64,000 nt of DNA from Candidatus Woesebacteria bacterium (GTDB taxonomy: Bacteria > Patescibacteriota > Microgenomatia > UBA1400 > UBA12108). A program made the position numbers and the translations under genes. The first letter of the stretch is position 1, and the number at the start of each line of letters is the position of its first letter. The stretch spans positions 86,070-150,069 of the forward strand of contig JAGOVG010000001.1 of the NCBI GenBank assembly GCA_018060845.1, written 5' to 3'. Under the pieces are notes generated by a model that ran no database searches, had not been told where the DNA came from, and saw nothing but the letters and a program-made list of their open reading frames with translations. Positions 5,230 through 16,455 of the stretch are shown piece after piece.

Positions 5230-5565
5230 CTATTTAATTATGAATCTATCTATAGAGATCATTGAGTAAGGATCGGCGGAATGCCAGCTCGAAAATACAG
5301 ACGCAGTATCTATGCCAGAATCACCAGTCACCACATACTTGCCTTGACTGTAATCAAAGGTAATAGTTATGCCATCCACTGACAGTGGAAGTTCAGAGTT
5401 TAGTTTTTCCATTGCACTGAGTTCTGTGTAATACTCTGGCGGAGCTATATCTAGTCTATTGCCTCCTGTTTGCTTGGGTTCTGCATTACGAATCGCCTGG
5501 TAAGATGCTATGAATGTAGTAACTAGAACTGTGACTATGACAGTAATCACTAATAATTTTTTCAT
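5230..5565 (-). CDS. Small membrane-anchored hypothetical protein
   Basis: N-terminal TM helix (LLVITVIVTVLVTTFIA). Start taken at MKKLL to avoid overlap with the upstream giant gene. Confidence 0.4.
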   Translation of the reverse strand: MKKLLVITVIVTVLVTTFIASYQAIRNAEPKQTGGNRLDIAPPEYYTELSAMEKLNSELPLSVDGITITFDYSQGKYVVTGDSGIDTASVFSSWHSADPYSMISIDRFIIK

Positions 5566-8072
5566 ATAGCCTCCGCTGGTGGGATTACTGCGTTGACCAC
5601 CCATTTAGTTCGACCACCATCACAAGTATTAGAGCAGTCTACGTCAAAACGCTCTACTGGCATTTCGTAGTTTTCGCCATAATAGGGGTCATTAAGTATT
5701 ATGCATGAGCCATCAGGACATGTCCCCACAGCTAAGGTTTGATGACCAAAACCTTTATCCCCATTTGGCTGATCGATATTGGAGTTTATCCAGACAGGTA
5801 TCCCATACTTACTGTATTCGTTGATCTGGGATACTATATTAACCACTGAGCCAGCAACAGGTACTACGTCAAAACCTTGATTTTCAAGTATTGGCTTGTG
5901 CTGTTCAAACCAGCTAGTACCTCCGGCTGATACACCACCATTTTCTTCGAGCAGGGCATTATAATCCTCAGGAGTGATGCTCGGATCTACCAATGACATG
6001 ACCATCGCTCCAGACATGATGCCACAGCCAACATCACCCCAATTTGAGCCATCAGGATTGGTAACTCCAGAGTAGTTCTTTTGATTAAAGTATGAAATAT
6101 TTCCATGTGTTGAAGTAACATTACTTTCCACAATATTATTAGCATCTGCACTTAAATTAAAGCCGCCGGTGTTGCCGGCGGTTTTTGTTGCGTTTACATT
6201 ATTTATTTGGCTAGGCCCCGTGTCATTTATCTGCGCAGGAGACTGTGTGTCCGTACCAAATGACTGCGGTTCATCTGGGGTAAATAGGTCATTTACACCA
6301 CCTATAATTGCGCCTAACACCGCACATGGATAAATAAACGGCCCACACGTAGTAGCTCCACCCATGATGCCAGAAGTAAAGCTCTTGGGTAATGTTGGGC
6401 GATCAATGTCCAAGTAAGTTGGTGCATCTTTTGCCTCTTTGCCTATCACAAAATCTGCACCTGCAATTGATATGTTAAAACCAGTATATAGATTATCCCA
6501 GTCCTCTGCTTCACTTTTTACCTTGAAAGGACTAAAGTTGATTATTGGTAAAAATCTATTCTCTTGTGATCCGATGGTCAGAACATCCCTCCCAGCTAAT
6601 GAGAAAGAGAAGCCTGAGTATATTTTGTCATTTAATGTATTGTAGGTTTTTGCTCTATTCATCGCACTTTTTCTGTCTTCTGTTCCTGATCCTTTCTGAT
6701 CTGAGGCAGTTAATCCACCACTCGCCTGGCCAAACTCGAAGGAAGTGGGGCTAAGTATCTCTTGGTTACGCTCAAATACATTTAGCTGTTCTGCGACGTA
6801 TGTCTCTTTATCTATCCATTTACCATCGTTACAGACACCGATCTCTTCTCTGGCATTACCAGAGGGAACTGTCTCGCCATTTGCTATACATGTAGCTAGT
6901 ACTTTGGGAGTTTCTCTAGGGCTAACTTCGCTAGATGGCTTGCCTACTGTATATTCGGCACCTGCGCCTGTTGGCAATATAACCTGAGCGGGATTTTCCA
7001 TATATACTTCGTGACAAGGCCTAGAATTGATGTGACCACACTTGGCATCTAACTGAACACATTGTCGTTGATTTCCATCACCTCCCATATTAAATCCAGT
7101 AGCTACATAGGTCCCAGATGAAACAGTTACGTTACCTGCTTTGCACTTATTAGTCTGCTCAGTCTGGCGTGCTGGGATATAGGAATTGGGATTGGTTGGA
7201 TTGGATGGATTAGTAGCACTAGTATTTGATGGTGTAGTCACAGTAGCACCTCTGCCAGTATTAAGAACTACTTTGCCACCACGTGTTAATGAGGTCTCAT
7301 CAACATACTCTCCATTCTCAGATTTGGTTCTCTTGAGCGTCGCTGTAGTGTCATCGACTGTTGTGCCTTTATCGTCTTTTACTACAATTTGTCTGGTTTG
7401 ATTGATGTTGCCTGTTTTTACTTCTTCTTTTGTGGATACTGTGGTAGTAGTCTCACCACCTAGCGCGTTGCGAGCTGTGGTGATGTTTTTGCTTACTTTG
7501 TTTCCCTCTTTGTCTTCACCATCGTATCCTGCTCCAGCAAATGCGTCTTTGAAAGGATTGTCATCTACGGGTTTAACTACGCAATCATCTGTCATACATC
7601 TACCAGGCTTTTCTGCTGTTGCATTTTCTGCCTTAGGAGCTACGCCAAGAGATTGCTTTTCCTCTGGCTTTTTAATAAATCCTGTAATTATTTCGACAAA
7701 ACCAGGTTTTTCTGTCGCTTTGGTTCCACCGTTTAGACTTGCCCCTTCGAATGGGTTAGATTTTTGAGTTGTAGTAGTTCCTCTCTCAGGAACGGTATTG
7801 GTAGCTGGTTTGACCGTGTCTTTTAAAGTAGTTTTTGTTGTTGTTAGACTAGAAGAGTCAACTTGCGTTCCAGCTTTTGAGCCAACTATACCTGCGCCGT
7901 TTAAAGTTCGGATTTGATTAACGGAAGGTGTAGCAGGAGTTACATAAAAATATATTAAATTGATCGCAACGACTAGTAATGCTAAACCTATTAGGATATT
8001 TTTTTTAGAAGAAATGTTGTTGCTTCGTAATACTTTTATGTTGTTTACTTTTTGTTTGGCTTTTTGCTTCAT
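5562..8072 (-). CDS. Giant membrane-anchored Thr-rich/Cys-rich surface protein with C-terminal papain/C39-like cysteine peptidase domain
   Basis: 836 aa. N-terminal signal-anchor helix and a Thr/Ser-rich low-complexity region with FxGAxLNGG motifs. A Cys-rich middle. C-terminus has GCGIMSGAMVMSL (catalytic Cys context) and GFGHQTLAVG...LNDPYYG (His/Asp), like Peptidase_C39-like domains. Confidence 0.6.
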   Translation of the reverse strand: MKQKAKQKVNNIKVLRSNNISSKKNILIGLALLVVAINLIYFYVTPATPSVNQIRTLNGAGIVGSKAGTQVDSSSLTTTKTTLKDTVKPATNTVPERGTTTTQKSNPFEGASLNGGTKATEKPGFVEIITGFIKKPEEKQSLGVAPKAENATAEKPGRCMTDDCVVKPVDDNPFKDAFAGAGYDGEDKEGNKVSKNITTARNALGGETTTTVSTKEEVKTGNINQTRQIVVKDDKGTTVDDTTATLKRTKSENGEYVDETSLTRGGKVVLNTGRGATVTTPSNTSATNPSNPTNPNSYIPARQTEQTNKCKAGNVTVSSGTYVATGFNMGGDGNQRQCVQLDAKCGHINSRPCHEVYMENPAQVILPTGAGAEYTVGKPSSEVSPRETPKVLATCIANGETVPSGNAREEIGVCNDGKWIDKETYVAEQLNVFERNQEILSPTSFEFGQASGGLTASDQKGSGTEDRKSAMNRAKTYNTLNDKIYSGFSFSLAGRDVLTIGSQENRFLPIINFSPFKVKSEAEDWDNLYTGFNISIAGADFVIGKEAKDAPTYLDIDRPTLPKSFTSGIMGGATTCGPFIYPCAVLGAIIGGVNDLFTPDEPQSFGTDTQSPAQINDTGPSQINNVNATKTAGNTGGFNLSADANNIVESNVTSTHGNISYFNQKNYSGVTNPDGSNWGDVGCGIMSGAMVMSLVDPSITPEDYNALLEENGGVSAGGTSWFEQHKPILENQGFDVVPVAGSVVNIVSQINEYSKYGIPVWINSNIDQPNGDKGFGHQTLAVGTCPDGSCIILNDPYYGENYEMPVERFDVDCSNTCDGGRTKWVVNAVIPPAEAI

Positions 8073-8074
8073 AC

Positions 8075-8461
8075 TTATGATTGCTTAATAGTAGTTAATA
8101 TAATCAATCCACTAAAACTGTCGTTGGGTAGGGGTACTACCGAGCCAGTGATCGTAACTTCTTGATCTACCAAATCTTTGTTAAATAACTTGCTGGAGCT
8201 ATCGACTACTAGTATCCGACCATCAGTGAGCACTAGCTGATATGACATTGAGGGGTCTATAGATGGATCAAATCTAAGTACACCCTGAAGAGTGGCATCG
8301 CCTAGCACAACACTCTCTCCTACCTCGAAAATGTCAACAGGCTTTGGTCTTAGTCCGCGTTCGTAATCGGTATTGACTATTGCGAGTACTAACCATACCA
8401 AGAAGATAGATAAACCTATCACCCACTTCTTTTTATTATCTTTGCGCTTTTTTAAGGTCAT
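8075..8461 (-). CDS. Small membrane-anchored protein (paralog of 10829..11209)
   Basis: 128 aa, N-terminal basic stretch plus TM helix. Shares LxLxxGxILxxxSSxxL...VTITG pattern with the 10829..11209 product. Confidence 0.45.
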   Translation of the reverse strand: MTLKKRKDNKKKWVIGLSIFLVWLVLAIVNTDYERGLRPKPVDIFEVGESVVLGDATLQGVLRFDPSIDPSMSYQLVLTDGRILVVDSSSKLFNKDLVDQEVTITGSVVPLPNDSFSGLIILTTIKQS

Positions 8462-8476
8462 ATATTTATTAGAGCT

Positions 8477-10801
8477 TTAACGAGTCGTAGATACACAGAC
8501 TCCGTCTTTTATAACACCCTGCTGATTACGATTATTAGCATCGCGGCAAGAGTCACCCTCTCTAACTAAGGTGTCAGTGTTTAGCTGAGTACCCTCAGAA
8601 TCTTCTGAGCCTTTGGTGCCGCCATCTAGGTTACCGTCAAGATTTGGATCTACATTTAGACCCTGACTGTCGTTAGGCTGAGTTACATTTTCTATTAATC
8701 GCTTGACGGTGCTTCTCGCGAGACAGCCAATTCCTTCTAGTTTTAAGAAATTTACGTCACATTGTGCATTCTTATCTTGCAACTCAGGGTTTATTGACCC
8801 GTCTTCGTCAGGACAGATGTAGTAGCCTTTGTTGTTAACGGTAGCTCCGCGTAGTTTACAGTCAGTGTCTTTTTCGACAACTTGGTTAGTCTTACCGTCA
8901 GGCTTTTGAACGATTCTGACTGCGTCAGGACTTAAGGAACCTCCAGTTTCAACTTCCAATCTAGGGGTCTCAGACTGCTTGTCGGGACTAAATGTAGGAT
9001 TTTTGGGAACGCAAATTCCTTTATTATAGACAACATTATTATTGGAGCATTTTTCGCCTGCTTCGCATGTCCAACTTATTCGACATTCTTCAGGCGCATT
9101 GAACTGACCGGAGTTCTTGTCGGCGCCCAGATTACCTGTAGCATCCCCTGTCTGAGGAGCCGCAGGAGCATTGAACTGACCTGAGTTCTTGTCATTGCCG
9201 AGGGTGCCTGTAGCATCATTAGTTGAGGCATCTTCTGGGCAGGATGTGGTCTTACTAAGGTATCCTCCCGTACACACTTGAACTGTAGTATTTGCATCTT
9301 TATTGACATGGTCACCTGGTCGGTAACACTTCTTAGCGTTACTATCCCACCAACCGGCGTTATCACCGGAAGCACATTCCTGTGAGCTCTTTGGTTCGTT
9401 AGCGTTTGTGGCTGACTGGGTAGGACAGTTGGTAGAGAGGAATGGATACTTAACATTAGGCCTGCCGCCTACAGTCCAGTCACAGACATAATTGCCTGGT
9501 GTGACTTCATCACCTATTGGATAACACTTGCCATTTAAAGGGAAAGCGTAGAGTCCACAGTTGGAGCCAGTAGTTGGAGCACAGACACTTCCTTTAGCCC
9601 TAGTTTTGACTAATTTTGTGTCTTTAGGACAGATAATTTCTGTTTGCTTGTCAGGACTGAGGGATCCGGCAGTGTCAGCACCAGTTTTTAGAGCTACAGG
9701 GACCTTGTTGGAAGCTGGTGGCGCGTAGAAAGTGTCAGACTGCTTGTCAGGGCTATATAGAGTCGTTTGCACCCCACTAGTGTTTGTTAGGTTGGTTATA
9801 TATTTCCCATTTTCGTTGAGAGTTTTGGTTATAGTAGCGGTATTCTCGTCAATCTTTTTGCCTGCTGTGTCATACTTCTCAACTTTGGAGATCAAAATCT
9901 CATTACCTGTTGGAGAGACGATAGTTCTGGTAGTGGTGACAGTCTTGCCTCCATCAGCCAGAGTTTGTGTCTCTGTTTTTGAGGTTAAAGCATTACCCTG
10001 CCCATCACTGCCGGAGTAACCACCTCCTACATTTGAATCAAACATTGCGTTCATTGCATCAATTTTGATCTTTTGCTCTTCTTGCATGTCATCCCGATTA
10101 GTTCTCGGACTGGTTGGGACGAAACTCTTTGAGATCTCTGCGCCACCATCGTCAACTTTTTCGCCTGGGCGAACAGGTGTAACACCTGATGTGCTCTTGG
10201 TGATCTCTTGAGATGGCATAGATACTCTGCCATTTTGGTCTAGATCTTTCCCTGTTACTTCTTCTGCATACTTGATTGCCTCGGTGACAATTTTGGTGTT
10301 CTGAGTTGTACCACCACCTAGGTTGGCGCCCTCAAAAGCATTTCCATAGTCAGCTTTTGGAGAAGTCTTGGTGGTAGTAACACCCGAAGCACTACGAGTA
10401 AGCTCGGCTCCACCATTGTCTGTTTTTTCTCCTGTTCTTGTAGTTGTTACATTTTGACCTGCGGTTTGCGTGCTACCAGCACCATCTTCTGTCTTGCCAC
10501 CGTTTAATTTGGCTCCTGCAAACACATCATTACCATCTTTTGGTTTGGTAGTAACTGTGCCAGTTTTTTGAGTCGTTTCGGTTGTTTTGTTTAAGGTAGT
10601 TTTTGGCGTTGTAGTTGTACTACGAGTAACCGAGCCCATACCAACTAGATTGATTGATGCTTGTTCTACAGATTGAGTAAAGAGGTAAATACCAATAAAC
10701 ACAAATGCTGTTATAGAGAGAACAAGGAATTTGTTTTTCTTAACATATTTGATAAATATGTTCTCTTTATTCTTGGTTGTTTTGTGTGTTATTTTTTTCA
10801 T
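8477..10801 (-). CDS. Giant membrane-anchored Thr-rich/Cys-rich surface protein (paralog of 5562..8072)
   Basis: 774 aa. Same N-terminal architecture and FxGAxLxGG motifs as 5562..8072. Many Cys, repeated SPDKQ(S/T) motifs and a 24-aa tandem repeat. Confidence 0.6.
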   Translation of the reverse strand: MKKITHKTTKNKENIFIKYVKKNKFLVLSITAFVFIGIYLFTQSVEQASINLVGMGSVTRSTTTTPKTTLNKTTETTQKTGTVTTKPKDGNDVFAGAKLNGGKTEDGAGSTQTAGQNVTTTRTGEKTDNGGAELTRSASGVTTTKTSPKADYGNAFEGANLGGGTTQNTKIVTEAIKYAEEVTGKDLDQNGRVSMPSQEITKSTSGVTPVRPGEKVDDGGAEISKSFVPTSPRTNRDDMQEEQKIKIDAMNAMFDSNVGGGYSGSDGQGNALTSKTETQTLADGGKTVTTTRTIVSPTGNEILISKVEKYDTAGKKIDENTATITKTLNENGKYITNLTNTSGVQTTLYSPDKQSDTFYAPPASNKVPVALKTGADTAGSLSPDKQTEIICPKDTKLVKTRAKGSVCAPTTGSNCGLYAFPLNGKCYPIGDEVTPGNYVCDWTVGGRPNVKYPFLSTNCPTQSATNANEPKSSQECASGDNAGWWDSNAKKCYRPGDHVNKDANTTVQVCTGGYLSKTTSCPEDASTNDATGTLGNDKNSGQFNAPAAPQTGDATGNLGADKNSGQFNAPEECRISWTCEAGEKCSNNNVVYNKGICVPKNPTFSPDKQSETPRLEVETGGSLSPDAVRIVQKPDGKTNQVVEKDTDCKLRGATVNNKGYYICPDEDGSINPELQDKNAQCDVNFLKLEGIGCLARSTVKRLIENVTQPNDSQGLNVDPNLDGNLDGGTKGSEDSEGTQLNTDTLVREGDSCRDANNRNQQGVIKDGVCVSTTR
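9096..9239. repeat. Tandem 72-bp direct repeat (2 copies) inside the surface-protein gene
   Basis: GCATTGAACTGACC(G/T)GAGTTCTTGTC... recurs at 9096 and 9168. It encodes the 24-aa repeat ..GxLGxDKNSGQFNAP. Confidence 0.7.
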
Positions 10802-10828
10802 GAGTTTTGACCCCTTTTGTGTCGATAA

Positions 10829-11209
10829 TTACTGAGTAGAAAGTACTTCTAATTTTGTTAAGATTAGACTTTGTGAGGAGGTAGCTGACTCGGCACTGAG
10901 CATACCTGTGACACTGACTTGTTTGCCTTCGAAACTATCTAGATTATCGGACGTGGATAAGAGAATGGCGTTTCCGCTGAGATTGAGGAGATAGTAGCTG
11001 CCTTTGACTCCAGCAGGCGTATCTTTGATAAGTACTCCCTCAAGACTGACGGTAGACTGGGAGCCGATTAGGTTAATGTCCACAGGCTTGGTCATCGAAG
11101 AAATTAGTGTGCCGACCAGTACGACTGATAGAACAGCTATAACTACAATTTTAGTTTTACTGGTTTTATTCTTACTAGTGTTACTTGAGTATTTATTGGT
11201 TTTTTTCAT
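10829..11209 (-). CDS. Small membrane-anchored protein (paralog of 8075..8461)
   Basis: 126 aa, N-terminal Lys/Ser-rich stretch plus TM helix. Sequence pattern similar to 8075..8461. Confidence 0.45.
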   Translation of the reverse strand: MKKTNKYSSNTSKNKTSKTKIVVIAVLSVVLVGTLISSMTKPVDINLIGSQSTVSLEGVLIKDTPAGVKGSYYLLNLSGNAILLSTSDNLDSFEGKQVSVTGMLSAESATSSQSLILTKLEVLSTQ

Positions 11210-11335
11210 ATTATCTCCCGCAGAACATAGATAATATCTCTATCTATTGTTTGCAATATACTATGTATCACTTAATATTATTTTGGGTGTAGTGTCAAGT
11301 AGATTGTTTTTATTTTTTCGGTCTCATTAATAAAT

Positions 11336-11358
11336 AACCCCCTTGTGCAAGGGGGTTA
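11336..11358 (-). terminator. Intrinsic terminator downstream of groEL (palindromic, possibly bidirectional)
   Basis: Perfect 9-bp stem AACCCCCTT-GTGC-AAGGGGGTT followed by T-rich ATTTTCTTG. Confidence 0.6.
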
Positions 11359-11389
11359 TTTTCTTGTCTTGAGTAAAGAAGTATTAGTT

Positions 11390-13519: not shown

Positions 13520-14341
13520 TTAGGCGGTAAAAACATCTTTGTCAGGGAGGCGGAAGAGTGGCTCACCCAAACGCTTTTGGTCGAGGTAGTGAGCGATCAA
13601 ACCAACAGAGCGAGAGAGGACAAAGATAGCATTAAAGAATTCGCTCTCGATTAAAGAGGCAAGCTCATCTCTCGTTAACTGTTCTTCGTGACTAAGCAAA
13701 TCAAGCATGACAGCTGCGAGGGTACCGTCGACGTTTAATATTAAGTTTGGTTTTTTGGCTGTAGTTAATTTTTCGACTGCTCGAGCAAAATCGAGGTGAG
13801 GATGAGGGATGTCTTGATTAAGATCTGATAAGAGTGAGACACGTGGATCGGGTGCATCGAGTCTGTATTTGCGATGACCAATACCAGGAATATACTCTTT
13901 TCGCTTGGCAAAATCTTCGACGAGAGTGGTTGGGTCGACACGGGGGTCGACCCCTACAGATTCAAACCATACCTTGGCGGCACCATTTACCGCGCCACCA
14001 AAACGAGGGCCAATAGTCAGGAGTCCGGCAACCAGAGAACTGACCAAGTCTTTGCCGGCGCGTGCAGTAACCATGGTGTTGACCGCACCTGAGACATAGG
14101 GACCGTGATCTACCAATAAGCGAAGTGCAAGATCAATCACTTTCTCTGTCTTTTTTGACTTTAGCTCTCGACCGAGCCAGAGACTACCAACAATCCAAGA
14201 TAGAGATTGGGTGGTAGCTACGTTGGTCAGATTTTTGCCTAGAATAGTGGGATCGCCACCTACGTCTCCACTAATAGTTGTGGTAAAGAGGGAGTGGGTG
14301 CGGTTGTCTAGGTTGTCCATAGTATGCAGTTTATCAGACAA
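13520..14341 (-). CDS. aclA: ATP-citrate lyase, citrate-synthase-like (citryl-CoA lyase) domain, encoded as a separate ORF
   Basis: LVDHGPYVSGAVNTMVTARAGKDLVSSLVAGLLTIGPRFGG...GIGHRKYR..PDPR...KKPNLILNVDG...LIAHYLDQKRL aligns closely with the C-terminal domain of eukaryotic ACLY and bacterial AclA. Confidence 0.8.
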   Translation of the reverse strand: MSDKLHTMDNLDNRTHSLFTTTISGDVGGDPTILGKNLTNVATTQSLSWIVGSLWLGRELKSKKTEKVIDLALRLLVDHGPYVSGAVNTMVTARAGKDLVSSLVAGLLTIGPRFGGAVNGAAKVWFESVGVDPRVDPTTLVEDFAKRKEYIPGIGHRKYRLDAPDPRVSLLSDLNQDIPHPHLDFARAVEKLTTAKKPNLILNVDGTLAAVMLDLLSHEEQLTRDELASLIESEFFNAIFVLSRSVGLIAHYLDQKRLGEPLFRLPDKDVFTA

Positions 14342-14374
14342 TCAGAATACTCGGAGAGTCTGAGATACGGATAA

Positions 14375-15331
14375 TCAGATTTTCAGATTATTAACAAGAT
14401 CAATGAATTCAGAGAAGGAGTTACTTACCTGAAAGCCAGCTTTTGTTAGCGCCTCACGCTTGGCGGTGGCAGTGACCCTATCTTTGTCGGCTTTGGCTTT
14501 GGCGTGACCAAACTGGGGTGATTCGGGGAAGAGGCTAGAGACGGTTCCGGCAATGTGAGCTAATACTTGCTTGGTAAATCTTCCTTCTTCTTTTAGTTTG
14601 ACCAGATCATATTCGTCCTCGCCACCTAGCTCACCATAATAGAGAACCGATTTTGTCTCTGGATCATTTTCGGCTAGTATAAAGGCGTCTCTCGGTGATA
14701 AAACAGGAAAGCGGTCACCACCAAAGCTAAGGGCAAAAGACAATCGAGCGCCGCCACTGGTTGCGATATTAATTAGCTCGTTGGTCATACCACCACTAGC
14801 AGATAAAACTGCCACACTACCCGGTTCTGTAAGATGTGACTCGTTGATCTGGACCGGCGTAATCCCACCGATTGGCCCGAGCTTGAGAACACCGGGAACC
14901 AGGAGGCCGACTGATGCAGGTCCTACTATTAACTTTGAAGAGTCACTATTCAACTTGATAAGGTTTTGCGAGTGCAGCTCGGGAACATTTTCGGCAAAGA
15001 GAGCGGCGCCACAAGCGTGTGGTAAGTGCTTGAGAAATTCTTCTGTACTAGATAGCGTGCGGCGACCTGAGAGGAGGTTGAGGAGCCAGAGATTTGAATT
15101 CGAATTTCGAAGTTCGAAATTAGTAATTGAAGTAAGGGTGGGAATAAGAATTTCTTTTCTACCCCAGAAATACTTAGCAAAACCTGAGCGGCCAGTGACT
15201 ATCCCTAGAATACTGCCCTCCCTTTTGCCAGATAAATAATCAAAATCGAGGATGCTCTGAATGATCCCGTCGTGGTTACCTAGGACTAATATTTTGTTGA
15301 TGCCACTTCTGATGTCTTCAATACTAATCAT
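14375..15331 (-). CDS. aclA: ATP-citrate lyase, CoA-binding/phosphohistidine domain (succinyl-CoA-synthetase-alpha-like)
   Basis: ILDFDYLSGK, YFWGRKEILIP, PGSVAVLSASGGMTNEL and catalytic-His motif QFGHAKAKA match the ACLY central region. Confidence 0.8.
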   Translation of the reverse strand: MISIEDIRSGINKILVLGNHDGIIQSILDFDYLSGKREGSILGIVTGRSGFAKYFWGRKEILIPTLTSITNFELRNSNSNLWLLNLLSGRRTLSSTEEFLKHLPHACGAALFAENVPELHSQNLIKLNSDSSKLIVGPASVGLLVPGVLKLGPIGGITPVQINESHLTEPGSVAVLSASGGMTNELINIATSGGARLSFALSFGGDRFPVLSPRDAFILAENDPETKSVLYYGELGGEDEYDLVKLKEEGRFTKQVLAHIAGTVSSLFPESPQFGHAKAKADKDRVTATAKREALTKAGFQVSNSFSEFIDLVNNLKI

Positions 15332-16455
15332 TGTGACCTCATGAGATAATTATTTACTTCGGTTACTACCTGAGTAAGAGGCGTCTCGTGACCATAGACA
15401 CACCCGAGGAGACTATTGTCGCTTAAGAAGTCGTGCATTAGCTTGAGTCCTGCCGCTTCGTTAGGACCGCCACGCCTGACAAACACTTTGACGCCGCTAT
15501 TGTTTAGTGAGTCTTTTTGCTCAGATAGAGCTCTGATTATTCCTTTAAACGTCTTAGCTACATCGGTAAAGTTGGCGACGCCGCCAGCAATAATTATGGC
15601 TTTTGGCGTTTTGTTTTTGATCAAGAGCATTTGCTTGAGAATAATTTTGGTATAGGAGTAGACGTCGTCGTCAGTTGGGGCACCACTGTACTCACCATAG
15701 TTGGCGAGCTGACCACCTAGACCTAGATCTGCGACTTCGTCGGCGAGGACTAGGCTAGCCCCACCCCCCGAGAGGAGCATCCAGATACTTCCATCCGGAT
15801 TTATAAGATGAAACTTAAGGCTAGCGGGGGTACTGTTATCCAGCTCGGCGATAGCCCGCTCTGACTCTGAGAGGAGTCGATCAGGGATTGCGGGGAGAGT
15901 AGAGCCAGCAGAGTCGATCTCAGCAGCCATATCGAGTGGAATAATTTTTTCACCCCTAATTACAATCGGATTCATCTCTAAAAAGGCGATATGGTGAACA
16001 TCGAGTTTGGGGATTAACTCTTGATTAATAAACTCTTCGAGGCGAGTCGGGAGTTTGTCGGTCACACTATCCCAGTGAGACTCGATTTCGACCCCACCGC
16101 TTTTACTATATTTGATATCCCAACCTTCACGTGCGCGAGTGAGTGACAAATATCGCTCCGCCCCGCTATCGTGCTCGTAGACTGGTTCTATTAAAAAATT
16201 GGTCCACCCCTGCTTGGCCCAGTCCGCAGTTACCGATTGGACGTCTTTTGGAGAAATATTGATTTTGACGAGACCTAGTTTGCCTCTTTTTTTGATCCCT
16301 TGGTCGACCTTGAGGACGAGGTTGGTGTCACCAAAGTGTTTTTTTATCTCAGATGCAGTAGTTTCCGCAGTCGCGGCAAGACCCTGGAATTTGAGATCAA
16401 AAATGGGATAGAGAGTAGTCTTAGCTACAAATTCGGAGATTTTTTGTCGGGACAT
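15328..16455 (-). CDS. aclB: ATP-citrate lyase, ATP-grasp subunit (AclB-like)
   Basis: LVLKVDQGIKKRGKLGLV, FLIEPVYEH, LINPDGSIWMLLSGGGASLV, LANYGEYSGAP and VFVRRGGPN give near-collinear identity with the ACLY N-terminal ATP-grasp region. The ATGA overlap with the next ORF suggests translational coupling. Confidence 0.85.
   Translation of the reverse strand: MSRQKISEFVAKTTLYPIFDLKFQGLAATAETTASEIKKHFGDTNLVLKVDQGIKKRGKLGLVKINISPKDVQSVTADWAKQGWTNFLIEPVYEHDSGAERYLSLTRAREGWDIKYSKSGGVEIESHWDSVTDKLPTRLEEFINQELIPKLDVHHIAFLEMNPIVIRGEKIIPLDMAAEIDSAGSTLPAIPDRLLSESERAIAELDNSTPASLKFHLINPDGSIWMLLSGGGASLVLADEVADLGLGGQLANYGEYSGAPTDDDVYSYTKIILKQMLLIKNKTPKAIIIAGGVANFTDVAKTFKGIIRALSEQKDSLNNSGVKVFVRRGGPNEAAGLKLMHDFLSDNSLLGCVYGHETPLTQVVTEVNNYLMRSQ

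Follow-up and report, generated by a model that had tools for sequence, protein, structure and literature searches.

A variable island of predicted surface proteins in Woesebacteria pairs a papain-like peptidase domain with a small, putatively exported protein

Introduction

What does a tandem set of small and giant membrane-anchored proteins, encoded between groEL and pyrH in the genome of an uncultured member of the Woesebacteria, do for a cell of this kind? Like other Microgenomates, the Woesebacteria are uncultured bacteria with tiny genomes that are thought to depend on other cells, and to our knowledge almost nothing is known about how they touch or exploit them. The locus lies in a window of 64,000 nucleotides, which is the whole stretch of DNA that was analyzed. 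A preliminary description had proposed that a cassette pairing a small membrane-anchored protein with a giant Thr/Cys-rich surface protein is repeated, forming a diversifying family with dedicated partner proteins, and had suggested that genes of this class may mediate host attachment by an episymbiont. In limited literature searches, neither the locus nor its families were found to have been described.

Results

The locus comprises five ORFs, all on the minus strand, in the order A1-G1-A2-G2-A3. Cassettes 1 and 2 begin with the membrane-anchored OB-fold proteins A1 (10829..11209, 126 aa) and A2 (8075..8461, 128 aa), each followed by a giant, predicted type-II-anchored surface protein, G1 (8477..10801, 774 aa) and G2 (5562..8072, 836 aa), respectively. 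The last gene, A3 (5230..5565), encodes a small, putatively exported or membrane-anchored protein of 111 aa counted from its MKKLL start, the mechanical ORF extending to 5604. The intergenic gaps are 27 nt (A1-G1), 15 nt (G1-A2) and 2 nt (A2-G2), and G2 and A3 overlap by 4 nt at the G2 stop codon; coordinates, order, spacing and motifs all agree with the preliminary description, and the repeated cassette that it proposed is borne out. Upstream of A1, an AT-rich spacer of 180 nt contains a TTGACA hexamer and a GGGAGA Shine-Dalgarno sequence, and a terminator-like hairpin after groEL (11338..11354, minus strand; CCCCTTGCACAAGGGGG followed by a T-run) separates the cassette genes from groESL. Because of this hairpin and the tight or overlapping gene spacing, the five genes are predicted to form one operon. 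Every product has a Lys-rich start followed by one strong N-terminal hydrophobic helix, which, together with the Cys counts even once the catalytic Cys of G2 is set aside and the lipoprotein nature of stand-alone homologues of the G2 peptidase, suggests that the operon encodes cell-envelope proteins only, with an extracytoplasmic location. None of the five window proteins reaches any family cut-off in Pfam or NCBIfam.

In Woesebacteria and related Microgenomates the island keeps its place between groESL and pyrH. It was present in every relative examined at the groEL-pyrH locus, and in all of them its core neighbors are groESL, pyrH, an M23 peptidase, GAPDH and a PEGA/SH3 protein. A gene of 662–678 aa in the groEL-A1 interval of the sister lineage was considered as a third giant and rejected, as its product has no TM helix and an unrelated sequence; it matches Transglut_core.

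G1 and G2 contain 13 and 10% Thr and 20 and 15 Cys residues, respectively, the latter count being 14 plus the catalytic C683. Their homology is confined to the N-terminal third, which consists of the anchor, a Thr-rich spacer, the FxGAxLxGG motif and a beta module of ~90 aa (G1 140-348 against G2 98-270, BLASTP E 6e-11; 83-residue core, hhalign probability 97.4%, E 1.3e-11). No relationship was detectable between the C-terminal halves. Among 70 collected proteins of 300 aa or more, a set that includes several duplicate copies of the same orthologues, the motif F.G[AVSM].[LI].GG was counted 22 times, where shuffled sequences predict 0.16. In G1, a TM helix (residues 25-43) is followed by a Thr-rich spacer with two FxGAxLxGG motifs (residues 94 and 156) and by the beta module (residues ~255-337; 9791..10039, minus strand), which is homologous to G2 176-259 and forms the core of the paralogy; the G2 counterpart is modeled as a beta meander with pLDDT of about 88. 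The C-terminal half of G1 (residues 391-769) is Cys-rich, with 20 Cys, and is interrupted by SLSPDKQ linkers. Orthologues of G1 were found only in the sister lineage and at one further locus (P0020/L008), and searches of PDB, Pfam and NCBIfam with G1 gave no match. G1 is presumably a non-enzymatic, Cys-rich variant with a binding role, in which the Cys modules would make the contacts.

G2 corresponds to the NCBI hypothetical protein KBD69_00500 of Candidatus Woesebacteria (100% match to P0001). Alignments were shallow, with 8 and 20 sequences. The AF2 model of G2, in which 364 of the 836 residues have pLDDT <50, places a TM helix at 24-44, a disordered stretch at 45-168, the beta module at 180-272, a Cys module at 308-430, a low-confidence beta region at 486-546, a hydrophobic helix at 581-596, a second disordered stretch at 597-657 and the peptidase at 660-836. 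The Cys-rich module (6783..7151, minus strand; pLDDT about 90) carries the patterns CKAGNVTV..GTWVATG..C..C.H..S..C and C.ANGETVPSGN..E.GVC.DG.W. It is common to ~25 other Microgenomates giants (exhaustive HMM search, profile positions ~230-460), and has no Pfam match and no credible match to any solved fold. Residues 566-597 (6282..6377, minus strand) form a hydrophobic segment rich in Gly and Ala that carries the conserved Cys pair C576/C583, and the relatives P0011, P0014 and P0016 end just past its equivalent. This segment lies between the ectodomain and the peptidase; were it a single membrane span, the peptidase would be cytoplasmic, contradicting the model discussed below. Searches of PDB, Pfam and NCBIfam with 18 giant relatives gave nothing. 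The N-terminal and central parts of these 18, of G1 and of G2 hold no Pfam or NCBIfam domain, only the TM anchor and a lineage-specific signature made up of a K/R-rich segment, the TM helix, [ST]G[TS]GP[LF]S and then [DS]IN.

The two upstream small proteins are related, as had been proposed: A1 and A2 match each other at a pairwise E of 6e-4, with a clear family alignment and HMM E-values down to 1e-50. Their ectodomain is modeled as a five-stranded closed beta-barrel with OB topology. A1 falls below the curated cut-offs of DUF5818 (13.7 bits versus 27), DUF1980_C (12.4 versus 25.9) and TIGR03943 (19.4 versus 88.8), and the family comprises only 7 clusters among 5.8 billion proteins. In every related locus with upstream sequence the OB gene is the first of its cassette (the window, with two copies, L001-3, L004/5, L007, L008/9 and L012, with two each for the latter two, L015, L016, L023 and L025), and it often overlaps the start of the giant gene, as in L015 and L016. 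The idea of a dedicated small partner is thus upheld for this family, and the constant pairing suggests that the OB-fold protein is a membrane-proximal docking or assembly partner of the giant.

The C-terminal domain of G2 (residues 660-836; 5565..6095, minus strand), which the preliminary description had missed, has the alpha+beta fold of a papain-like cysteine peptidase (clan CA, C39/C70-like). An alignment of 15 homologues shows no variation at Q664, C683, H777 and D795, which follow the order Q-C-H-D/N of clan CA, and by these residues the hydrolase appears catalytically intact. G2 itself scores below the gathering cut-offs of Peptidase_C39_2 (PF13529; 21.6 bits versus 24) and Peptidase_C70 (PF12385; 17.5 versus 19), whereas its relatives P0015 and P0021 pass both and P0019 passes that of C70. 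Because only relatives reach a cut-off, the G2 domain is placed in a subfamily adjacent to C39_2/C70, and G2 is not a scored member of either. Among solved structures, those closest in sequence to the His-Asp half belong to Cpe1-type T6SS/CDI toxins and AvrRpt2, at marginal E-values (1.6e-3 to 0.024) and over ~50 residues only; no significant relationship to Cpe1 and no association with PAAR, VgrG, Rhs or CdiA was found. Scans of genomes and metagenomes seeded with one or two peptide patterns of the peptidase yielded 5 and 10 loci, among which were several duplicates. The domain is elsewhere fused to GGDEF, kinase-like and PP2C proteins, and distant copies occur on signaling proteins within the same phylum. 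Stand-alone homologues are lipoproteins; for one of them (L027) no A3 gene is present, which means that pairing with A3 is not obligatory for the enzyme.

A3 had been grouped with A1 and A2 as a third small TM protein. Pairwise comparison shows no relation, and an HMM of the OB family matched no A3-family gene in the related loci searched, save two homologues at marginal E-values (1e-3 and 0.02); the three proteins thus fall into two unrelated families, the partners A1/A2 and A3, which is tied to the G2 peptidase domain. Besides its hydrophobic N-terminus (residues 4-22), A3 has no credible Pfam, PDB or NCBIfam match and represents an orphan family, its best NCBIfam scores being below cut-off and restricted to the signal-like N-terminal region (AimP_fam, 24.7 bits versus 35). 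After the anchor, the tripeptide TGG is invariant in an otherwise variable linker in six of six aligned homologues, and it is also present in the remaining A3 sequences read. A match to the A3 HMM (E 1e-11 to 1e-57) lies directly downstream of the giant-borne peptidase domain in 10/10 lineages (the window, the L001 group, L006, L007/L022, the L012/L023/L025 group, L015, L016/17, L019/L028, L020 and L026) and after none of six giants that lack the domain (window G1, L004_G, L007_G, L008_G, the second L012 giant and P0031 in L018), although these lineages are phylogenetically non-independent and the counts overstate the statistical support. Two of the domain carriers, a GGDEF protein of 1930 aa and a protein of 2252 aa, lie at unrelated loci. 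Pairwise divergence of the peptidase domain and of A3 is correlated with a Pearson r of 0.80 (15 pairs, uncorrected for phylogeny) and a Spearman coefficient of 0.43 (p 0.11). From the pattern of co-occurrence we infer that A3 is a partner dedicated to the peptidase domain. Its most likely role is to bind and neutralize the hydrolase on the producer's own surface, in the manner of an inhibitor or immunity protein; alternatively, it is possibly a substrate of the peptidase.

Compared with the sister lineage, the flanking genes share 94–97% protein identity and the cassette genes 64–76%, with dN values of 0.02–0.04 and 0.18–0.24, respectively, a difference of ~10-fold. Positive selection was not shown, as pN/pS is <1 in every 60-codon window, and dN/dS ratios are unreliable with dS saturated (>1). 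The number of cassettes is one (L004, L016) or two (the window, L001, L012, L007). The two window cassettes share no long DNA repeat, which argues that their duplication is ancient. The first ~325 nt of L004_G, a G2-type giant, and L008_G, a G1-type giant, are nearly identical, with a handful of mismatches; the similarity stops abruptly after an FAGxQLGGG motif and the sequences are unrelated beyond it. In the two L007 giants, at least 300 nt of the 5' end are 100% identical. The C-terminal ends of the giants vary, comprising the peptidase, an HExxH domain, a Gly-rich hydrophobic tail, a divergent Cys-His domain or a Cys-rich region. Diversity thus appears to arise by duplication and by recombination of a constant 5' region onto different C-terminal bodies, and the locus is a position-conserved, hypervariable island in Microgenomates. 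The preliminary description of a diversifying family is in keeping with the dN values, the variable cassette number and the recombined N-termini, and of the two comparisons that it had called for, copy number does vary, whereas dN/dS gave no sign of positive selection.

Discussion

On balance we lean toward a joint reading of the locus, in which polymorphic surface effector or adhesin proteins, each with an OB-fold partner, are combined with a protease and its cognate exported partner. Each giant would be held in the membrane by its N-terminal helix in an N-in/C-out orientation and would project a disordered Thr-rich stalk bearing folded beta and disulfide-rich modules, while the small OB-fold protein encoded just upstream would aid its docking or assembly near the membrane. 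G2 would bear the papain-like cysteine hydrolase at its distal end, and A3, exported to the same compartment, would bind and neutralize this hydrolase on the producer surface. The system may act on a host or a neighboring cell. A more far-reaching version is doubtful: a contact weapon or attachment system peculiar to CPR bacteria, complete in itself and operating without a known secretion machine, with an extracellular effector-immunity pair drawn from two new protein families. In such a system, the N-terminal sorting signature and the OB partner would constitute a new anchoring or release route, the stalk and Cys modules would bind the host cell, into whose envelope the Gly-rich hydrophobic segment would insert and whose wall or surface proteins the PeiR/C39-like hydrolase would cut, and the exported A3 would shield the producer's own surface.

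The strict co-occurrence of peptidase and A3 suits a substrate as well as an inhibitor, and the peptidase could instead be a maturation or release enzyme that acts on A3 and possibly on the giants. Cleavage of A3 after the TGG that is invariant in the variable linker of six aligned homologues would free a soluble domain of ~75 aa, comparable with the action of C39 peptidases and of Cpe1, which cleaves at a GG motif (PMC12136450), and releasing peptidases have been described in polymorphic toxins (Zhang et al. 2012, PMC3482391). This is nevertheless unlikely. The leader-like consensus LSxxELxxIxGG is absent; classical C39 domains are cytoplasmic and act on substrates of ABC transporters, and no ABC transporter is present here. 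In the giants, TGG shows no enrichment, the other domain carriers whose sequences were read lack the TGGFNLS that precedes the G2 peptidase, and FxGAxLxGG also begins a folded beta module and need not be a cleavage site. There is no support for general double-glycine cleavage of the giants at TGG or FxGAxLxGG, and the idea survives for A3 only.

An inhibitory A3 could also belong to a housekeeping function, with an autolysin-like endopeptidase checked by A3 taking part in remodeling and scaffolding of the cell's own wall or S-layer. That the island is fixed among core genes in all relatives, that distant copies of the domain are found on signaling proteins of the same phylum and that dN/dS, albeit with saturated dS, is <1 throughout are consistent with this explanation. 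It is rendered quite improbable by the observation that such enzymes rarely evolve ~10 times faster than their neighbors, differ in copy number or exchange their C-terminal bodies by recombination, and by the relatives that carry an HExxH domain, a Gly-rich hydrophobic tail or a divergent Cys-His domain instead of the peptidase. The opposite extreme, a classical polymorphic toxin-immunity system in which the G2 protease is delivered into the cytoplasm of a competitor (cf. Cpe1, CdiA-CT) and A3 is the immunity protein, would account for the constant N-terminus, the variable C-terminus and the recombination junction, as well as for a small gene immediately downstream that is specific to this type of C-terminal domain; polymorphic toxins are known to include Tox-PL-C39 domains (PMC3482391), and Cpe1-type toxins and AvrRpt2 are the nearest solved sequences to the His-Asp half. 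However, the Cpe1-type matches are marginal and short, and no T5, T6 or T7 secretion, Rhs, PAAR, LXG or pre-toxin domain was detected with Pfam or NCBIfam. A3 has an N-terminal signal or anchor where Cpi1-type immunity proteins are cytoplasmic, the locus is not followed by orphan toxin or immunity cassettes, and GGDEF, kinase-like and PP2C proteins carry the domain as well. A classical toxin-immunity system is highly improbable.

The locus, at a chromosomal position that stays the same, offers a concrete candidate for cell contact that can be followed from one genome to the next. The peptidase-A3 and OB-giant pairs provide simple hypotheses for expression tests, and the OB partner, A3 and the Cys module and N-terminal signature of the giants can be defined as new families for CPR annotation. 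Should the locus serve ordinary surface maintenance, it would still be a useful marker of strain-level variation.

Each component resembles known systems in part. BOF/YgiW, NigD-like lipoprotein domains and potempins have an extracytoplasmic OB fold, and A1/A2 are likewise predicted to be membrane-tethered and outward-facing; all Pfam and NCBIfam matches are far below cut-off and give no family membership, and the A1/A2-type gene, in distinction to these proteins, is always paired with a giant. The C39 domains of PCAT1, ComA and LahT are N-terminal to an ABC transporter, whereas the G2 domain is C-terminal and predicted to be extracytoplasmic, in an operon that, unlike those of bacteriocin-processing C39 peptidases, encodes no ABC transporter; the canonical leader peptide of double-glycine peptidases is also absent. 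Pfam Peptidase_C39_2 proteins include that of B. anthracis (3erv), and G2 itself is under the cut-off of this family. The PeiR family of pseudomurein endoisopeptidases belongs to methanogen prophages. PeiR (8z4h) has 16% sequence identity to the G2 domain and no sequence-level family match with it. A secreted cysteine protease with a co-transcribed specific inhibitor is found in staphopain-staphostatin, streptopain SpeB-Spi and the Tannerella KLIKK peptidases-potempins. Staphostatins are cytoplasmic beta-barrels, whereas A3 carries a signal or anchor, and in contrast to staphopain, SpeB and the KLIKK peptidases the protease is carried as the distal domain by an anchored protein of 836 aa and has no recognizable pro-peptide. 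Polymorphic toxins (Tox-PL-C39/Tox-PL1, PMC3482391) and Cpe1-Cpi1 (PMC12136450) are alike in having a large exported protein with a swappable C-terminal domain, a recombination junction at a conserved motif, a papain-like Cys protease as the C-terminal domain and a small downstream gene, often overlapping, that co-occurs specifically with the domain type; the structures of Cpe1 and CdiA-CT show weak profile similarity to the G2 domain. In contrast to polymorphic toxins, G2 has an N-terminal TM anchor instead of a recognized secretion or trafficking domain, Rhs or filamentous repeats, the candidate immunity protein A3 is itself predicted to be exported or anchored, an additional OB-fold partner gene lies upstream, and the locus is held at a fixed chromosomal position among core genes and is restricted to Microgenomates (CPR).

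Results

The locus between groEL and pyrH is made up of five minus-strand ORFs in the order A1 (10829-11209), G1 (8477-10801), A2 (8075-8461), G2 (5562-8072) and A3 (5230-5565), where A1, A2 and A3 encode small proteins and G1 and G2 giant ones. On re-examination the coordinates of the preliminary description matched exactly, and the spacing it gave, a 2-nt gap between A2 and G2 and a 4-nt overlap between G2 and A3, was reproduced. G2 is identical to the NCBI hypothetical protein KBD69_00500 from a Candidatus Woesebacteria MAG. All products from A1 to A3 have a Lys-rich start followed by a single strong hydrophobic helix. A terminator-like hairpin after groEL (11338-11354), together with an AT-rich spacer, a TTGACA hexamer and good Shine-Dalgarno sequences upstream of A1 and G1, points to a separate transcription unit for the five genes, and the transcript possibly extends into pyrH. 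Directly upstream of groES lies a split ATP-citrate-lyase-like set of three genes (13520-16455, minus strand), with a Citrate_synt C-terminal domain, Ligase_CoA/Succ_CoA_lig, and Citrate_bind with Citrate_synth_N; this set is also kept at L001, L004 and L016, three of the related loci fetched from other genomes (L numbers).

G2 is an anchored giant as first described, but its C-terminal peptidase domain had been overlooked; it emerges from Pfam, profile search and structural model. Residues 658-810 matched the Pfam families Peptidase_C39_2 and C70 below threshold. An exhaustive profile search with the G2 family among 1.84 billion representatives yielded 54 relatives (P numbers) in two separable modules, the C-terminal peptidase domain and a Cys-rich unit. 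The peptidase domain turns up again at the C terminus of larger proteins (560-2250 aa) and also by itself, in proteins of about 250 aa, and three relatives pass the Pfam cut-off (P0015 and P0021 for both families, P0019 for C70 only). Gln, Cys, His and Asp residues corresponding to Q664, C683, H777 and D795 of G2 are invariant across 15 homologues. The domain model matches papain-like folds, with a Foldseek probability of 1.0 against Alr0975, and a PDB sequence profile search gave marginal matches to Cpe1-type T6SS/CDI protease toxins and AvrRpt2 (E 1.6e-3 to 0.024). Some related giants carry a metallopeptidase-like HEFMH (HExxH) motif (L012 4000-6795; P0012 residues about 880-900), for which Pfam returned nothing; the L012 example is the second giant of its island, and no A3-like gene follows it.

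The three small membrane proteins had been described together. A1 and A2 do form one family, alignments upholding them as true paralogues, but A3 belongs with the peptidase and not with the cassette repeat; it is unrelated to A1 and A2 in sequence, which rules it out as a third copy of that partner. When all fetched loci were scanned with HMMs built for A3, the OB-fold proteins (the A1/A2 family) and the peptidase domain, every large protein ending in the peptidase domain had an A3 homologue directly downstream, mostly overlapping or a few nt away. This holds for the window, its sister lineage (L001-3, L010, L011, L021), L006, L007/L022, the GW2011_GWF2_46_18 Microgenomates group (L012/L024, L023, L025), L015, L016/17 and L026, and extends to unrelated loci, where A3 follows a 1930-aa GGDEF protein of Woesebacteria GW2011_GWB1_45_5 (L019/L028; E 7e-22) and a 2252-aa protein (L020; E 5e-13). 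A3 was found downstream of none of six giants without the peptidase domain, among them the L004 giant, whose divergent Cys-His C terminus is unseen by the peptidase HMM. The stand-alone lipoprotein peptidase L027 has no A3 either, so that only giant-borne peptidases show the coupling. The peptidase domain and A3 diverge in a correlated manner, with a Pearson r of 0.80, not corrected for phylogeny, and a Spearman coefficient of 0.43 (p 0.11). A3 itself has an N-terminal signal or anchor and a linker in which TGG is invariant; searches of Pfam, NCBIfam and PDB gave it no credible match. L011 (contig CAZSVV010000020.1), 89% identical to the peptidase and A3 region of the window, is labelled "uncultured Pseudomonadales" and is probably mis-binned Woesebacteria DNA.

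The shared architecture attributed to the giants is confined to their N-terminal third, which is homologous by BLASTP (E 6e-11 over ~200 residues) and by profile-profile comparison (97.4% probability for an 83-residue core, G1 255-337 against G2 176-259), but the C-terminal halves are unrelated. In the G2 model this core is a beta meander (pLDDT about 88). DNA comparison of the two cassettes, each an OB gene plus a giant, showed no long repeat common to both, and the duplication is old. The FxGAxLxGG-type motif is real, with 22 occurrences against 0.16 expected from shuffles, counted over a collection of 70 proteins (300 aa or longer), several of which repeat an orthologue already included. 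G1 contains 20 Cys and G2 15 (14 plus the catalytic one), compatible with disulfide-bonded extracytoplasmic proteins. The Cys-rich module of G2 (308-430, pLDDT about 90) is common to about 25 other giants and matched no Pfam family or solved fold. A surface protease is hardest to reconcile with G2 566-597, a Gly/Ala-rich hydrophobic segment situated between two extracytoplasmic-looking parts. This segment may serve as a re-entrant anchor or insert into a membrane; some relatives terminate right after its equivalent. G1 also harbors a 55-nt near-tandem repeat (window 9091-9217; 84% identity, 72-nt spacing) that codes for two copies of GNLG.DKNSGQFNAP. In G1-type giants, copies of the linker motif G-[ST]-L-S-P-D-K-Q separate the Cys modules: four in G1 (residues 350, 382, 605 and 624; window about 8930-9750), six in L003_G1 and five in L008_G. 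In G2 an invariant TGGFNLSxD lies about 25 aa before the peptidase domain (G2 635-643; window about 6144-6170). This may be where processing or modification takes place.

The A1/A2 family is tiny, with 7 clusters among 5.8 billion proteins. Its AF2 model consists of a TM helix and a five-stranded barrel (pLDDT 85-92), and a juxtamembrane [KR]P.DIN motif is the counterpart of the SINLVG/DINKV motif of the giants. A superfamily signature, a K/R-rich start, TM helix, [ST]G[TS]GP[LF]S, about 5 residues and [DS]IN, was seen at the N termini of P0012, P0013, P0022, P0027-P0062, G1/G2 and A1/A2. The GTGPL part occurs in 14 of 54 giants and [DS][IV]N, a very loose three-residue pattern, in 31 of 54; G1 and G2 retain the second part alone, and KPVDINLIG occupies the equivalent position in the OB proteins. 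The signature, to which no NCBIfam or Pfam signal model matched, may be a dedicated sorting signal. At one related locus only, L015, a signal peptidase I gene (Peptidase_S26; 336-1184) lies directly upstream of the OB gene, which recalls operons that have their own signal peptidase.

In all relatives with visible flanks, the cassettes lie between groES-groEL and pyrH, with an M23 peptidase gene and GAPDH next. Their content varies across related genomes: L004 has an OB gene and a giant; L016 an OB gene, a peptidase giant and A3; L007 an OB gene, a giant, a peptidase giant and A3; and L012 an OB gene, a peptidase giant and A3 followed by an OB gene and the HExxH giant. The sister lineage has the window arrangement plus a transglutaminase-like gene of 662-678 aa between groEL and A1 (L001 4783-6771, L003 383-2419), where the window has merely 180 nt (11210-11389). 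Lacking a TM helix and scoring 24.1 bits for Transglut_core (cut-off 23), this product adds a further papain-fold protein to the island. Between window and sister lineage, protein identity is 94-97% in the flanks and 64-76% for A1, G1, A2, G2 and A3, with dN of 0.02-0.04 and 0.18-0.24, respectively. Identity along the giants is uneven, as in a mosaic: it reaches 98% at G1 340-399 (90-98% across 310-489) and falls to 33-42% at G1 552-612 and G2 461-555. Of the diversifying family first proposed, fast evolution is borne out, but positive selection is unsupported because dS is saturated and pN/pS is always <1. Four of the five cassette genes have pS of 0.65-0.76 (A3, 0.55), and most flanking genes 0.41-0.58 (groES, 0.70); the higher cassette values suggest that alleles at the island have been exchanged or coalesce further back in time, within the limits set by saturation. 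Recombination in the giants can be read directly from the sequences. Over about 325 nt L004_G (G2-type) hardly differs from L008_G (G1-type), then the similarity breaks off sharply just past the FAGxQLGGG motif, and the two L007 giants are identical over at least 300 nt of their 5' ends. Named relatives are only Woesebacteria, Collierbacteria and "Microgenomates group" MAGs, all annotated hypothetical; the system is restricted to Microgenomates.

Discussion

We favor, with slightly better than even confidence, a picture of anchored giants with OB partners, a protease-bearing G2 and a cognate exported A3. The giants would be type-II-anchored surface proteins atop disordered Thr-rich stalks, G1 a Cys-rich variant without an enzyme and G2 tipped by a predicted catalytically competent papain-like hydrolase. 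The OB proteins would act as membrane-proximal partners translationally coupled to the giants, and A3 as the hydrolase's exported partner, which most likely binds and neutralizes it. The data show how the genes are paired, the folds, the catalytic residues and the variability; where the proteins reside, what they act on and which way the relationship between A3 and the peptidase runs are what we infer.

That direction could be reversed, with A3 a double-glycine-type substrate of the peptidase. The invariant TGG in the A3 linker speaks for this and the lack of an ABC transporter at the locus against it; we regard this reading as unlikely. A housekeeping role in wall or S-layer remodelling was prompted by a PeiR match and the core-gene neighborhood; set beside cassette genes that diverge far faster than those neighbors, it seems distinctly improbable. 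A classical polymorphic toxin aimed at the cytoplasm, with immunity, would also pair an enzyme-tipped giant with a small downstream gene, but the locus has no trafficking domain and A3 bears a signal or anchor, and we consider this very improbable. The A1-A3 locus is a clearly delimited candidate, open to testing, for a role in the interaction of an uncultured lineage with other cells, but hypervariable surface-protein islands and protease-partner pairs are already familiar themes.

The locus falls in none of the defined families for which membership was assessed, and no curated family covers the OB partner, A3, the Cys module or the N-terminal signature of the giants. G2 scores under the cut-offs of the Pfam C39_2/C70 peptidases, C39 peptidases of ABC transporters differ in their associated transporter, and similarity to the described Cpe1/Cpi1 pair (PMC12136450) is merely marginal, the partner here being exported. 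In its working the locus is most similar to a polymorphic toxin/effector locus with a Tox-PL-C39-type end domain (PMC3482391) or to a secreted cysteine protease whose inhibitor is co-transcribed.
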